A stretch of 41,144 bases of DNA, taken from IMG/VR virus record IMGVR_UViG_2579778538_000003; one strand, given 5' to 3'. The notes below the pieces were generated by a model that saw nothing but the letters and a program-made list of their open reading frames with translations, was not told the origin of the DNA and made no database searches. Shown one piece after another: positions 7,952 to 13,993 of this stretch. The DNA is from a virus. Its lineage: Duplodnaviria > Heunggongvirae > Uroviricota > Caudoviricetes. Position numbers and translations under genes: made by a program. How positions within the stretch are numbered: the stretch's first letter is position 1; the number at the start of each line of letters is the position of its first letter.

Positions 7952-8200
7952 AGCTAAAGTATTAGCTTAAAAATAAAGTATACCTAGCGAATATAATCTA
8001 GGACTAGTTGTAACGCCCGAAATGATTGATTGCGTGAGCAACAAAATTTTTCTTCCATTGTTGTGAAATCATTTAGCCATAAAGTTTATGCAGAGATTTT
8101 ATTTTATTTTTGAGTTGATTTTTTTGTAACGAGCTGTATATTTCGCGCCTCTTGTCATACCAGTTATTTTTTTCATTATATTCATAACGTTGATTGAACT

Positions 8201-11200
8201 ATGACCACTGTGAATAAAAAGTTAAAAAAAACTGCATCTGGCGCGATTACATGGTCGGTAATTGTTACCCAGATATTATCTCCAGTTTCTCTTTCTTTGA
8301 TCCCAGCAAACAGTTTTGCATCATCTGGTAATAAAGATGTTACGCAAATTTATGCCAGCGATGAGCATGCAAATAAAGTGGCCTCATTTGCAGCAAGTGC
8401 AGGTCAGAGCCTGGCGAATAATAATGCAAGTAGTTTTGCTGTAAATACTTTATCAACTCAGGCGACAAAAGAGGTCGTCGACTGGTTGCAACAATATGGC
8501 AATGCGCGCATCAAGCTTAATGTCGATGATTCTTTTTCCTTGAAGGATTCATCATTCGACTTTTTATATCCATGGCTGGATACTCAGGATTATGTGTTAT
8601 TCAGTCAGACATCACTACATCGTACTGATGACCGAAATCAGACCAATATTGGTTTGGGGATTCGTCATTTCACTCCTGATAACGCAATGTTGGGTGCGAA
8701 TGTTTTCTATGATTACGATTTAAGTCGTAGTCACTCTCGTGCAGGTTTTGGGGTTGAGTACTGGAGGGATTATTTCAGGCTTGGTGTAAATACCTATTTT
8801 GGTCTATCTGACTGGAAGAACAGTCGTGATATTGATGATTATCTGGAAAGACCTGCAAATGGCTGGGATTTTTCTGCTGAAGGATGGCTACCTGCTTATC
8901 CGCAATTAGGGGCATCTATTCAGTTTGAAAAATATTATGGTAAAAATGTCGGGTTATTTGGAAGCGATAACCTGCAGGAAAACCCTTACGCAGTTACTGG
9001 GGGAATTTCTTATACACCAGTTCCTCTGATTAAGTTTTCTGCACAGCATAAGCAAGGACAGAGCAACACTCACGATACAACCTTTGGTGTTGAGTTTAAT
9101 TATCGCCCGGGCGTTTCCTTGGCTGAACAGCTTAGCAGCGATAATGTTGCAGTTATGCGAGAAGTCCAGAACCGGCGTTATGATTTTGTTGAACGAAATA
9201 ACAACATTGTTCTGGAGTACAAGAAGAAGCATGCACTGAAAATCAGTTTGCCAGAGTCTGTTCAGGGGGAGGGGGAATCAATCATCCCTGTAACACTGAC
9301 AATCAACAATGCTAGTGGTGGTATCAAGTCTGTACAGTGGAATGATAGTGCATTCACTGCGGCTGGCGGCAAGATCAGTGGAAATGGCACATCATGGCAG
9401 ATCACTTTACCGGCTTATAAAAGCGAAGGTGTAAATTCGTGGAATGTTGGAGCCACAGTACAGGATAACAGAGGCAACGTTTCCAACTATGCCGTGATGA
9501 ATATTAGCGTTACTGATAGTGGTGTCTCGACGGCTGATTCGTCTTTTACACTGGATGGAGATTCGTCGCCGACAATCTCTGCTGATAGCCAATCCACTTA
9601 TCCGATAGTATTAAGCCTGAAAGATAGTAACGGTAAGGCATTAACCGGACTGGCTGATGACATTGAAATGTCAGTGGAATTTACAGCAGATAGCAATAGT
9701 GCTCGACAGCGTGAAACGGTAACTGCTCCGTCATTAGGCGCGGTAGAGGAAATCTCTGCTGGGGTATATCGCTCTGTTCTGACTGCTGGTTCGCAGGCTG
9801 GTACGGTACGTGTAACTGCAAAAGTTCAGGGAAAAACCTTTACTCTGAATATTAAGCAGGCAGCCATTACTGATAGTGATGTATCGACAGCTGATTCGTC
9901 TTTTACACTGGATGGAGATTCGTCGCCGACAATCTCTGCTGATAGCCAATCCACTTATCCGATAGTATTAAGCCTGAAAGATAGTAACGGTAAGGCATTA
10001 ACCGGACTGGCTGATGACATTGAAATGTCAGTGGAATTTACAGCAGATAGCAATAGTGCTCGACAGCGTGAAACGGTAACTGCTCCGTCATTAGGCGCGG
10101 TAGAGGAAATCTCTGCTGGTGTATATCGCTCTGTTCTGGCTGCTGGTTCGCAGGCTGGTACGGTACGTGTAACTGCAAAAGTTCAGGGAAAAACCTTTAC
10201 TCTGAATATTAAGCAGGCAGCCATTACTGATAGTGATGTATCGACAGCTGATTCGTCTTTTACACTGGATGGAGATTCGTCGCCGACGATCTCTGCTGAT
10301 AGCCAATCCACTTATCCGATAGTATTAAGCCTGAAAGATAGTAACGGTAAGGCATTAACCGGACTGGCTGATGACATTGAAATGTCAGTGGAATTTACAG
10401 CAGATAGCAATAGTGCTCGACAGCGTGAAACGGTAACTGCTCCGTCATTAGGCGCGGTAGAGGAAATCTCTGCTGGGGTATATCGCTCTGTTCTGGCTGC
10501 TGGTTCGCAGGCTGGTACGGTACGTGTAACTGCAAAAGTTCAGGGAAAAACATTTACTCTCAGTATTAAGCAAACAGCAACAACAGAACCTGATTCTGAG
10601 GTCAGTGCTGTTTTAACCGCTGCACCAGCAGAACAGGTAGTTGGTTACAATATCAATCTACAACTGGCAGTGAAGGATTCACAAGGAAATGCAATCACTG
10701 GTGATAACACTCTGAGCTTTTATGCTCTTAACCAGGCAGAAGGAGTCGAGTTTGGGACTGTAACGGAAAAAGACGGTGTCTATAGCGCGACAGTAACTTC
10801 AAAACGAGCTGGTAAGATTACTATCGGTGTTAAATCTGATAGTCATGATTTCTCAGGTGTTAAGAAAGAAATCACCTTTATTGAGGACCGGCAGCAGGTT
10901 ACATTCTCTCAGTTTGAAGCCAGCCAAAATAATGCATTGGCTGATGGAAAACAGAGAAATATGGTAACTGTAAGCCTTGCGGACCGTTTCGGCAATGTTG
11001 TTCCTGGTTATGCTGTCACATTGTCTTTACCAGCAGGGATAACTCAAGTTGGTGGTGAACATGCTGTTTCAACTGACGAAAATGGTAATGCTATTTTTGC
11101 GTTAATAAGCTCCACTCCGGGGTCTTACGTGATTACAGCTCATGCTGGTTCTCAGATGTCTACTGAGTTAACAGTGACCTTTGCATCAAATATGACCGGA

Positions 11201-12504: not shown

Positions 12505-13546
12505 ACAGGTTAGCGTTTGGGTTTTGTTGTTGGGGAGCTGTTTTTATAGGCGCTCCCAGGTTTTTAGTAAACCACTCAACGACTCTGTTTATAATAATTG
12601 GCTGATACCATGTCTTATCGCCATGCTCGGCCCCTTCTACCAGCACGTACTCAGCGTTATCACCGTTCTTCTTCAACATCCTGAATAGTTTGGCGCTTTG
12701 CTCAGGTGAAACCAGAGTGTCTTTGCTACCATGCATAATAAGAAATGGGGGTTTTACTCCTTTCATATGTCCGATTGGACTGGCGTTTAGCGCTTTTTCT
12801 TTTGACGCTGTGATGGGGGCTCCCGCAAAATTTCTGAATGCAGGGCCATTGATCATTAAGGCTTCGGTTACGGCAGGAGAGCGATGAACCTCCTGCACTG
12901 ATTCAGGGAACCCCTCGCCAATATTCAACAAGTCAGAAATCCCATAAAGTGTGGCAACTGCCTGAACATCTGAGGATTGCTGAAGAAAGTCACCTTTATC
13001 AAAGGTTTTGTCACCATTTGTAGTTCCCATCATCTGGGCAAGCCATCCACCGGCAGAGTCACCCAGAACTCCGATTCTTTGAGGATCAATCCCATAATTG
13101 CTGGCATGCTCTCTCAGGTAACGTATTGCAGCTTTTCCATCCTCAACTGGTGCTGGAAATGTATCAGGAATTGTTCTGTATTCTACAGCGGCCACAACAA
13201 AACCAGCTTCTGCCAGAGCCATTCTCATTTCAATAAATTTGTCATGTTCAGAAGACATGAATCCGCCGCCGGGATAATAAATAATGGCTGGTTTTAAATC
13301 ATTTGTTCGCGGGACAAGAACTGACATGTGAAGCTGTCTGACAGAACGAGTTCCTTTTATCTGGGAATAAACAACATCACCAATGAGATCGACCTGGTTT
13401 CTGGTCGGTGAAACACTAATGATATCTGCACCCGGGGTGTAACCAGGAAGATTAGTCTGGACAGGTGTTGCACAACTCCCGACCGACATGGCCATTGACA
13501 TACCATACAATAGTGTTGCAGATGATAATATCTTGTTAATTTTCAT
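12503..13546 (-). CDS. secreted/lipoprotein alpha/beta-hydrolase (esterase/lipase family), 347 aa
   Basis: Signal peptide ending in a lipobox-like VGSC; GDSAGG nucleophile elbow (G-x-S-x-G); C-terminal acidic and His residues consistent with a catalytic triad. Confidence 0.75.
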   Translation of the reverse strand: MKINKILSSATLLYGMSMAMSVGSCATPVQTNLPGYTPGADIISVSPTRNQVDLIGDVVYSQIKGTRSVRQLHMSVLVPRTNDLKPAIIYYPGGGFMSSEHDKFIEMRMALAEAGFVVAAVEYRTIPDTFPAPVEDGKAAIRYLREHASNYGIDPQRIGVLGDSAGGWLAQMMGTTNGDKTFDKGDFLQQSSDVQAVATLYGISDLLNIGEGFPESVQEVHRSPAVTEALMINGPAFRNFAGAPITASKEKALNASPIGHMKGVKPPFLIMHGSKDTLVSPEQSAKLFRMLKKNGDNAEYVLVEGAEHGDKTWYQPIIINRVVEWFTKNLGAPIKTAPQQQNPNANL

Positions 13547-13993
13547 GTTTTACATGCCTTGACTTATCGGATGAAATTCTCTTACTAAATTTAACGGCAG
13601 TTTAATAGCCGTACAACTCGTGGTAGCCAGGGAAATATCCCAGTCGTGGTTAAGGTTGTACTTGACGGCTATTATTTCAACAATGCTTAAAGTGAGAGCT
13701 TAAGGTTATGCGTATGTTTTACAGTCCGAGTAGATTCTGACCAATAGCTTCTTTGTATAATTCTGTCAGAAATAAATCTTGGCTTGCATGAAGTTTGAGA
13801 CCTTATCTTGTTTGATTATGAATAATCAATTCGCCATAATTGTATCACCGGAGCCTGAACAACTCCGGTGACTTCTGCGCTAAACGGGGACGTTTATGCG
13901 CACACACAATCCAAACTCTCTTCTCCCTTCACAGATGCAGAAATGCACCTGCGTTTTTTTGCATCTAGCGTCTGACCTCTGTGGAGGTGAAGC

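Follow-up and report, generated by a model that had tools for sequence, protein, structure and literature searches.

Morons of lambdoid phages are classically recognised by presence/absence polymorphism, a deviant base composition and a terminator of their own. They include bor/iss and lom of lambda relatives and the emrE-ybcK-ybcL-ybcM group of the K-12 prophage DLP12. Among the inverse autotransporters (IATs) of Escherichia coli, FdeC (EaeH) is a vaccine antigen encoded at a fixed chromosomal site. [quoted passage not shown] 2019, PMC6714894). Of the IATs in that survey, YeeJ, IatC and IatD alone are given a C-type lectin cap (PMC6714894). Among esterases, the Dickeya protein FaeD, a feruloyl esterase of family CE10, is secreted via the Out system (PMC9007343, PMC10319131).

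We analysed a stretch of viral DNA of 41,144 nucleotides (IMG/VR record IMGVR_UViG_2579778538_000003, referred to here as the window). The icd-adjacent lambdoid prophage of E. coli ST131 strains (EC958 and JJ1887 among them) was 100% identical to it; ST131 chromosomes matched at 100% identity over 6.6 kb and the prophage adjoins icd. Among multidrug-resistant extraintestinal E. coli, ST131 is the dominant clone, and which adhesins it carries is of interest for colonisation and vaccines. Between P and ybcN, the original prediction had placed one AT-rich cargo island (7952-13993) encoding an intimin/invasin-type adhesin and a convergent esterase. We consider it probable that the segment is a variable moron slot, running from P to ylcH-ybcN in a nin region of DLP12/phage 82 type, in which two independently acquired genes lie side by side. 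The features of the region are as follows.

7250..7951, + strand: P, left flank (Pfam Phage_lambda_P, 3.4e-61)
About 7942, in the last codons of P: left cargo junction (alignment with strain 144, NJS001 and phage 4A7)
7952..8200, + strand: AT-rich leader of the adhesin gene, conserved with the gene in adhesin-only strain 144
8201..12466, + strand: inverse autotransporter (type Ve) adhesin, 1421 aa (Pfam, PDB barrel matches, collinearity with FdeC)
8489..9223, + strand: beta-barrel translocator, residues 97-341 (end-to-end alignment with the solved invasin and intimin barrels)
9510..10572, + strand: tandem 357-bp unit, three copies (TRF, self-BLAST)
12110..12466, + strand: C-terminal tip domain D9, residues 1304-1421, lineage-specific, weak Big_1
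12478..12498, + strand: G+C-rich hairpin GGGGAGGGCTTAGCCCTCCCT with a 9-bp stem, then CTTTTTA, between the two stop codons
12503..13546, - strand: 347-aa serine carboxylesterase and predicted lipoprotein, CE10 / alpha/beta-hydrolase fold-3 / BD-FAE type
13547..13810, - strand: esterase upstream region, part of the esterase module, near-identical in esterase-only phage 4A7
13811..13895, + strand: conserved lambdoid backbone, not cargo, matching the annotation of the phage 82 record
13896..13997, + strand: ylcH / phage 82 orf33 homologue, 33 aa, first nin-region backbone gene
13994..14449, + strand: ybcN (phage 82 orf151), right flank

Both open reading frames had been predicted exactly. The cargo does lie between P and ybcN as proposed, but its limits are about 7942 and about 13810; positions 13811-13997 are backbone. 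The P protein ended in KGAMK in the window; in phages that lack the adhesin module it ended in KGASV and its gene overlapped ren. The GC content of 7942-13810 was 43.3%, the lowest among all 5.9-kb stretches of the window (51.5% as a whole), and the lowest non-overlapping 5.9-kb stretch had 47.8%, so the AT-richness that had been claimed is real but modest. The segment occupies the slot where lambda has ren, and comparison with related phages supports its being dispensable cargo. Like the lambdoid morons above, it was present in some and not all close phage relatives, differed in base composition and carried its own terminator, a hairpin and T-run that go with the adhesin gene. DLP12 has an equivalent slot and backbone with different cargo.

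The esterase matched Pfam BD-FAE (5.7e-45; 153.9 bits, cut-off 26.8) and Abhydrolase_3 (1.1e-22; 81.3 bits, cut-off 25). Its PDB matches were 6nkf (1.6e-37), 6mly GH43-CE (2.4e-22) and the acetyl xylan esterase 6xyc (2.8e-21). The lipobox and GDSAGG motif noted in the original prediction were both confirmed, the former as SVGS followed by C25 and the latter with nucleophile S164, which falls in the aligned GDS(A/S)GG elbow of 6nkf; a PGGGF oxyanion motif was also present. S164, D276 and H308 were invariant in 10 homologues, and the pattern of the fold family suggests that D276 and H308 form the triad with S164. The N-terminus fits the PROSITE PS51257 lipoprotein pattern at Cys25, which was found in 66 of the 66 esterase copies from fetched loci. 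In one cluster representative (P0001, 97% identical) Tyr replaces Cys25, so lipidation would not be universal. Since the lipobox of the E. coli phage clade is followed by Ala at +2, the lipidated protein is most likely anchored in the outer membrane.

The closest relatives, at 61-72% identity, were non-lipoprotein esterases of plant-associated Enterobacterales (Dickeya, Pectobacterium, Pantoea, Klebsiella, Erwinia and Enterobacter soli). FaeD and other BD-FAE/CE10 esterases share with the phage protein the BD-FAE domain, the GDSAG elbow and, as predicted here, the Ser-Asp-His triad. Homologues from other genera had ordinary signal peptides and no lipobox Cys, and FaeD is exported through the Out type II system. 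The phage clade carries a lipobox; in coliphages, a family of secreted plant-type esterases appears to have been turned into a lipoprotein. One Dickeya relative (63-66% identity) is labelled 'ferulate esterase' in UniRef and may be FaeD or a different protein. The family names (BD-FAE, CE10) and this label suggest that the enzyme most likely cleaves acetyl or hydroxycinnamoyl esters off carbohydrates, in families that are promiscuous. No convincing sigma-70 promoter was found upstream of the esterase gene, the best candidate in a relaxed scan having 8 of 12 matches.

It is possible, but unlikely, that the esterase serves the phage by de-O-acetylating a surface glycan (O-antigen, capsule or ECA) and so altering the receptor of competing phages. 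Lambdoid phages that are viable and inducible, obtained from infant gut E. coli (PMC6969025), carried the gene intact, its product is predicted to lie in the envelope, and membrane proteins are frequent among lambda morons. However, the closest relatives are chromosomal genes of plant-associated bacteria, no phage context was noted at the loci examined, and the family labels suggest plant-polysaccharide esters. Such an activity would be a form of lysogenic conversion or superinfection exclusion.

Judged by its sequence, the large protein is a member of the intimin/invasin superfamily of inverse autotransporters, as the original prediction had it. The domain search returned IAT_beta at 5.6e-101 over residues 57-334 (338 bits, cut-off 22.3), and the barrel aligned with both the solved invasin barrel (4e1t, 9.9e-74) and the intimin barrel (4e1s, 6.8e-63). 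The protein comprises a signal peptide, a short periplasmic segment, a 12-stranded beta-barrel (about residues 97-341) and ten Ig-like domains. The signal peptide (about residues 1-40) was called by direct reading of the sequence and by collinearity with the FdeC N-terminus; it has a basic KKLKK n-region, a hydrophobic core and a cleavage end ANSFA/SS. Eight Invasin_D3 and five Big_1 stretches were found in the whole-protein Pfam scan, and scans of passenger segments resolved D0, three repeat domains and six further Ig-like domains. The repeats (TRF period 357, 3.0 copies, 98% matches) each encode one 119-aa Invasin_D3-like Ig domain and are 96-98% identical to one another. Strains carried one, two or three copies, giving alleles of 1183/1184, 1302/1303 and 1421 aa.

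The tip domain D9 (last 118 aa) gave only Big_1 at E=0.057 when searched alone in Pfam. A phmmer search against 1.84 billion representatives returned, besides the cluster of D9 itself and fragments, a single fragment at 56% identity and some weak matches to parts of Ig domains. Neither Pfam nor this phmmer search gave a match to a C-type lectin tip, and the structure model (pLDDT 37) was too poor to use. LysM had no Pfam match in residues 1-100 or in the whole protein. The passenger is of Invasin_D3 and Big_1 type, and the adhesin differs from intimin and invasin in having no LysM, no detectable lectin-like tip and no Tir or integrin context; the likeness is rather to FdeC.

Over 480 aa the adhesin and FdeC were 46% identical, and the two proteins aligned collinearly across the signal peptide, barrel, D0 and first Ig domain. 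They are similar in length, neither has LysM, and both passengers consist of Ig-like repeats only. Unlike FdeC, the adhesin is phage-borne in the P-ybcN slot; its barrel is only about 50% identical, the 119-aa units of its stalk are repeated in tandem almost unchanged, and no relatives of its tip domain were detected. Because the architecture is the same but identity is 46-50% and the locus differs, the adhesin is, on these comparisons, an FdeC-like paralogue. Orthology with fdeC was rejected on the same identity and on the prophage location; ST131 strains (EC958, JJ1886) are scored fdeC-positive in their own right. The best functional analogy is with IatB, IatC and IatD, which belong to the same protein family. 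The barrel was 52% identical to that of IatD and the N-terminal 374 aa 47%, although IatC and IatD have LysM and lectin domains that the adhesin lacks. The gene lies outside the six genes surveyed by Goh et al. (2019, PMC6714894).

Following the known steps of type Ve secretion, the adhesin would be exported by Sec, its 12-stranded barrel inserted into the outer membrane and its C-terminal passenger exported hairpin-wise. The outcome would be a cell-surface rod of ten Ig-like domains, the length of which varies with one to three copies of the 119-aa repeat. The lineage-specific D9 presumably binds a ligand. By analogy with FdeC and IatB-D, the adhesin probably favours adhesion or biofilm formation by the lysogen. 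The published survey of E. coli IATs (PMC6714894) does not include this second FdeC-like adhesin, which is phage-borne and has a divergent tip and a variable stalk, so that colonisation studies could reasonably take it up. A stronger proposal is improbable as a whole. In it, the adhesin would represent a phage-mobilised E. coli IAT lineage beyond the seven groups catalogued in 2019, its orphan tip would bind a new host or matrix ligand, and the repeats would tune the length of the stalk and so its reach past O-antigen and capsule; encoded on the icd prophage, it would help pandemic ST131 to colonise the gut or urinary tract. The strongest form adds that the esterase, anchored in the outer membrane, would remove acetyl or feruloyl groups from glycans of mucus or diet and so uncover this ligand.

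The 250 bp upstream of the adhesin gene had a GC content of 30%. Two pairs of sigma-70-like hexamers were found in this leader (8115-8142 and 8152-8179), but promoter matches were no commoner than in shuffled sequence, so its promoter function is a prediction. We regard the leader as a candidate promoter and H-NS target. H-NS-type repression of the leader would probably keep the adhesin silent in ordinary culture.

Silence could also mean that the adhesin gene is a decaying, never-expressed passenger without function in present hosts. E. coli IATs are generally without detectable expression in culture, and several ST131 genomes carried IS insertions in or beside the gene. Of 44 complete copies read at independent loci, every one nevertheless had an intact frame of 1183-1421 aa, although the passengers diverged by 2-11% at the protein level, and changes in repeat copy number were always in frame. 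We therefore regard decay as quite improbable.

The hairpin at 12478-12498 lies between the convergent stop codons, where a bidirectional terminator had been predicted. A proper T-run follows it on the + strand only (CTTTTTA); on the - strand the sequence continues with CATTCAATTT. This indicates that the hairpin is the adhesin gene's own intrinsic terminator and not a symmetrical bidirectional one. The adhesin and esterase modules meet at the 7-base CTTTTTA run (12499-12505). Adhesin-only strain 144 retains the hairpin and CTTTTTA. Esterase-only phage 4A7 shares the common sequence from CTTTTTACAGG on, through 13810, and has another hairpin before CTTTTTACAGG. We propose that the first module (about 7942-12505) is a self-contained adhesin cassette of AT-rich leader, FdeC-like gene and intrinsic terminator, and that the second (12499 to about 13810) is the CE10/BD-FAE-type esterase.

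Related loci showed how the modules are distributed. The arrangement P-IAT-EST-ybcN (IAT, adhesin gene; EST, esterase gene) was found in the window and most IMG/VR loci, and P-IAT-ybcN in strain 144 and seven IMG/VR prophages (L033-L039). The esterase alone was found as P-ren-emrE-recombinase-EST-ybcN in viable phages such as 4A7, Lambda_4C10 and Perceval, and also in D2, 1W, 3W, PhiR47_2 and L071-78, 82 and 85-88; P-ren-emrE-EST-ybcN was found in L079-81 and 84. NJS001 had neither gene (P-small ORF-ybcN), and the equivalent slot of K-12 DLP12 holds renD-emrE-ylcJ-ybcK-ybcL-ybcM. Both genes, either alone or neither thus occur on one P...ylcH-ybcN backbone, and the modules assort independently. 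The segment is cargo as predicted, and it is dispensable, being absent in part or whole from related phages, but it is two modules joined at the T-run and not one island. We propose that the two genes came together in ST131 by recombination at the 7-base T-run and were then passed on within the clone. As a cargo site, the slot from P to ylcH in lambdoids of DLP12/phage 82 type has two compartments, and cassettes are swapped there at terminator T-runs. Both genes are already known under generic annotation in hundreds of genomes. The searchable literature yielded no report of a lambdoid moron that encodes an inverse autotransporter, and no expression, localisation, adhesion, enzyme or other functional study of either protein. 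The locus changes no concept and is a well-behaved instance of moron biology.

The original prediction had further suggested that adhesin and esterase work as a pair. The esterase might, for example, uncover or alter a glycan that serves the adhesin as receptor, or the IAT might display the esterase as ZirT does with ZirS/ZirU. Both products are predicted to lie in the cell envelope, and there is precedent for IATs as export platforms for the products of neighbouring genes (PMC6714894). Among 5426 complete E. coli genomes, 682 had the esterase, 560 the adhesin, 734 either gene and 437 the intact junction with the genes adjacent; the totals imply roughly 50 genomes with the adhesin only and 170 with the esterase only. 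As most two-gene genomes are clonal ST131, these raw counts carry little information on selection for the pair. Each gene occurs without the other on the same backbone, the esterase also in viable phages, which points to ordinary phage cargo. The join is a simple T-run at which each module keeps its own 3' end, and the genes are convergent, not co-transcribed as an operon. No IAT was found within 8 kb of the esterase homologue at six non-Escherichia loci (other genera or metagenome bins). The separate modules, their independent assortment, the lack of a nearby IAT and the convergent orientation leave the pair without comparative support; nothing indicates that either gene depends on the other, and we consider a working pair very improbable.

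A conserved core function in the early region, suggested by the location within the early-right operon, where the segment separates P from the nin genes, was rejected as having next to no probability, since viable phages lack the adhesin, NJS001 lacks both genes, and the slot contains other genes in DLP12 and phage 4A7. The comparison with related phages located the insertion edges instead. Just beyond the right edge, the backbone at 13812-13840 contains the elements TTGATT ... CATAAT, which the phage 82 record gives as putative -35/-10 signals; the 'possible regulator-binding site' of that record corresponds here to the inverted repeat CACCGGAGCCTGAACAACTCCGGTG, within 13811..13895.

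An AT-rich segment with an adhesin gene and a convergent hydrolase gene lies between replication gene P and ybcN, as the original prediction had described, and the ORF listing, Pfam matches and GC content all agreed with this arrangement. The genes of the segment and its flanks were as follows.

7250-7951, replication gene P (Pfam confirmed P and O on the left of the segment)
8201-12466, plus strand, inverse autotransporter (IAT) adhesin ORF, 1421 aa
12503-13546, minus strand, esterase ORF, 347 aa, convergent with the adhesin
13994-14449, ybcN, right flank (Pfam NinB match borderline, 23.7 bits against a cut-off of 23.8)

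The region 7942-13810 had a GC content of 43.3%, compared with 51.5% for the whole window, and was the lowest among 5.9-kb stretches; the lowest stretch of that length not overlapping it had 47.8%. The 250-bp leader of the adhesin gene had only 30% GC. Rfam gave no match in the whole window at gathering thresholds, nor in 7900-14100 at E≤1. The 6.6 kb around the segment was 100% identical to many Escherichia coli ST131 chromosomes, including those of JJ1887, EC958 and O25:H4 strains, and in JJ1887 the prophage adjoins icd. In EC958 the prophage is probably Phi3, judging by where the EC958 paper places Phi1, Phi2 and Phi4. RefSeq labels the two products "inverse autotransporter beta domain-containing protein" and "alpha/beta hydrolase".

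As shown by alignment, homology among all backbones stopped within the final codons of P, at about position 7942. On the right, the esterase module ended near 13810, and the sequence beyond matched the phage 82 record, which annotates putative −35/−10 signals, a possible regulator-binding repeat, orf33 (ylcH) and orf151 (ybcN). The borders first proposed, 7952 and 13993, thus needed a small correction. A hairpin with a 9-bp stem was located between the two genes at 12478-12498. It was followed by a T-run on the plus strand only, so that the predicted terminator was found but its bidirectionality was not. In strain 144, which carries the adhesin alone, the hairpin and CTTTTTA were kept and the sequence diverged thereafter; in phage 4A7, which carries the esterase alone, a different hairpin precedes the CTTTTTACAGG and esterase stop codon shared with the window. 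These two observations place the join in the 7-base T-run at 12499-12505. Judged by the alignments, the segment consists of two modules rather than one island. Origin of the adhesin-only form by simple deletion of the esterase was rejected, as the next 150 nt or so past the terminator of that form are unrelated sequence.

Immediately upstream of ylcH, at 13846-13870, was a perfect inverted repeat, CACCGGAG...CTCCGGTG. Phage 82 and 4A7 share this repeat, which bears the label "possible regulator-binding site" in the phage 82 record, but it differs in strain 144 and NJS001, a genome with neither gene. Its position is where early-right transcription re-enters the nin genes past the cargo terminators.

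The slot between P and ylcH-ybcN held different genes in different phages. It read P-ren-QacE/EmrE-small ORF-recombinase-esterase-ybcN in phage 4A7, contained the adhesin alone (1302 aa) with ylcH-ybcN directly after it in strain 144, a single small ORF of about 115 aa in NJS001, and renD-emrE-ylcJ-ybcK-ybcL-ybcM in K-12 DLP12. To the deposited phage genomes Lambda_4C10, 4A7, D2, 1W, 3W and PhiR47_2, the esterase and its upstream region (12499-13895) showed 99.2% identity, and to phage Perceval 99.1%; the adhesin was absent from all seven. We scored 76 IMG/VR viral-contig loci for the presence and order of P, the adhesin barrel, repeat and tip, the esterase (EST), ybcN, ren, emrE and the recombinase.

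Gene orders in the slot among the 76 IMG/VR loci (L, locus fetched for comparison)
P-IAT-EST-ybcN: majority of the loci
P-IAT-ybcN: L033-L039
P-ren-emrE-recombinase-EST-ybcN: L071-78, 82, 85-88
P-ren-emrE-EST-ybcN: L079-81, 84
Truncated esterase: L090

Of 5426 complete E. coli genomes, 682 had esterase DNA and 560 the 5' part of the adhesin gene; 734 had either 3' end, and 437 had the junction intact. These counts imply roughly 50 genomes with the adhesin only, 170 with the esterase only and 510 with both, the last class being inflated by clonal oversampling of ST131. A probe for the empty site, the end of P joined to ylcH-ybcN, detected no genome with a direct join, and the shortest filling was about 0.8 kb with one small ORF. 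No IAT barrel was found within 8 kb of the esterase homologues in the Erwinia, Pectobacterium, Enterobacter soli, Selenomonas and Clostridium loci. The proposal that adhesin and esterase form a functional pair is unsupported, since each gene occurred without the other in the same slot and the esterase homologues examined had no IAT nearby. The cargo reading of the segment is right: both genes are dispensable, differ in composition from the backbone and are present in some relatives only.

The cryptic-clade Escherichia sp. MOD1-EC7003 (NZ_PTRE01000031.1) has an esterase of 97% identity beside emrE, between bioA/bioB and ybhC/ybhJ, and neither P nor ybcN was found near it. The bioA/bioB-ybhC interval contains the lambda attachment site, and we therefore read this locus as a decayed lambdoid prophage remnant in which only the cargo was kept. 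A linear 237-kb record, "plasmid pMY504-2" (NZ_AP026904.1), contained the prophage region of the window with both genes and also carries IS-disrupted phage genes; this record is possibly misassembled or a piece of a chromosome. In several other ST131 genomes, insertion sequences (ISEc52 and ISEc23) were located in the adhesin gene or in the adhesin-esterase junction, split matches occurred at about 12519-12526, and IS1 lay inside the esterase in one strain. With insertions in adhesin, junction and esterase, the cargo is under inactivation in some sublineages.

The assignment of the large protein as an inverse autotransporter of the intimin/invasin superfamily agreed with Pfam, which gave IAT_beta (5.6e-101) and multiple Big_1 and Invasin_D3 domains. 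The barrel (residues 97-341) aligned with the solved barrels of invasin and intimin at 1e-73 and 7e-63. Among the named E. coli IATs compared, the barrels of FdeC and IatD were about 50% and 52% identical to that of the adhesin; beyond the E. coli clade the nearest relative was a Citrobacter protein (68%). FdeC was collinear with the first 480 residues at 46% identity, a stretch that begins with the signal peptide, includes D0 and extends into the Ig region by one domain, whereas IatD aligned from residue 58 only because its N-terminus is longer and bears LysM. Segment-wise Pfam scans resolved D0, three 119-aa Invasin_D3-like repeats and five Big_1 domains; the last domain had a marginal Big_1 match, and neither LysM nor a lectin domain was detected. 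The three repeats were 96-98% identical to one another. Alleles of 1183/1184, 1302/1303 and 1421 aa corresponded to one, two and three repeat copies, numbers that are possibly under-counted in draft assemblies, where short reads collapse the 357-bp repeat. None of the 44 complete copies read had a broken frame.

Compared with 1.84 billion representative proteins, the tip domain matched only its own cluster, one 56%-identical fragment and, weakly and partially, Ig domains; on this comparison it is close to an orphan. A protein word-index search with the last two passenger domains returned only 2 relatives, and hence no useful alignment for structure modelling; AlphaFold2 on the single sequence gave an unusable model (mean pLDDT 37). 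Promoter scans upstream of the gene gave no more matches than shuffled sequence. A second IAT of 1186 aa, with a barrel 67% identical to that of the window, was present in two IMG/VR metagenome viral contigs (L043, 7977-11537, and L044). It adjoins the integrase/CI repressor/CP76-type CII end of a P2/186-like prophage; either another type of temperate phage carries it as cargo, or it may belong to host DNA just past the prophage border.

The hydrolase matched BD-FAE (5.7e-45) and Abhydrolase_3 in Pfam. Among solved structures its best relatives were 6nkf, a metagenomic lipase/esterase (1.6e-37), 6mly, the CE domain of a bifunctional GH43-CE enzyme, and the acetyl xylan esterases 6xyc and 6tkx. 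PGGGF, GDS164AGG, D276 and H308 were invariant in an alignment with nine homologues. Homologues of 61-72% identity were common in Pectobacterium, Dickeya, Pantoea, Erwinia, Kosakonia, Kluyvera, Klebsiella, Enterobacter and Rhizobium, and UniRef names one from Dickeya ferulate esterase; Dickeya FaeD is a CE10 feruloyl esterase secreted via the Out system. The homologues in these genera have ordinary signal peptides, whereas the E. coli phage protein has a lipobox and matched the PROSITE lipoprotein pattern (SVGS/C25, Ala at +2), as did its close relative P0004. Relative P0002 has a lipobox-like SAGC and failed the pattern because its N-terminus is apparently truncated. Cys25 was found in 66 of 66 copies of the fetched loci, whichever the neighbour, and restriction of lipidation to the adhesin-linked allele was rejected, as emrE-linked alleles and phage 4A7 also have Cys25. 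The cluster representative P0001 (97% identical, 1454 members) has Tyr25 instead of the lipobox Cys, and the 75%-identical relative P0005 also has Tyr at this residue. A single-base Cys/Tyr switch at residue 25 (about 13472-13474) may be segregating between lipoprotein and soluble forms. No candidate promoter of the esterase matched more than 8 of 12 positions, and truncated copies occurred in L084 and L090.

Adhesin and esterase are each a moron as the term is applied to lambdoid phages, dispensable, of deviant composition and present in some relatives only, the adhesin with its own terminator as well. How the products would act can be proposed from what is established about type Ve secretion, Lol sorting and the serine hydrolase fold. 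Sec would export the adhesin, whose barrel would be inserted into the outer membrane and whose passenger would be threaded out; the resulting rod of ten Ig domains would have a private tip on a variable stalk. If the protein resembles FdeC and IatB-D in function, it would promote adhesion or the formation of biofilm, and its gene would be under repression in culture. For the esterase, lipidation and sorting to the outer membrane are predicted, and there it would hydrolyze acetyl or hydroxycinnamoyl esters.

Neither gene appeared under a name, or as a characterised gene, in the searched literature. Goh et al., who surveyed E. coli IATs in 2019, covered intimin, FdeC, YeeJ and IatA-D; their survey scores EC958 and JJ1886 for fdeC, iatA and iatB only, and the prophage gene is unmentioned. 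The adhesin is also missing from the virulence-gene lists of the EC958 genome papers. Hundreds of genomes already carry generic annotations of both genes, which add new, uncharacterised members to known families and occupy a variable slot that was itself known. Two leads are the most useful: the phage-borne FdeC-like adhesin of ST131 with its near-orphan tip, and a plant-type esterase family that has gained a lipobox.

Two further morons lie past the lysis genes, at 17664-17957 (minus strand) and 18438-18764 (plus strand). One is the iss/bor serum-survival lipoprotein and the other a small RefSeq "TonB family protein" with a lipobox-like N-terminus (LAVGC). The position of lambda cII (5698-6237, plus strand) is occupied by a 179-aa protein labelled "toxin YdaT domain-containing" in RefSeq.
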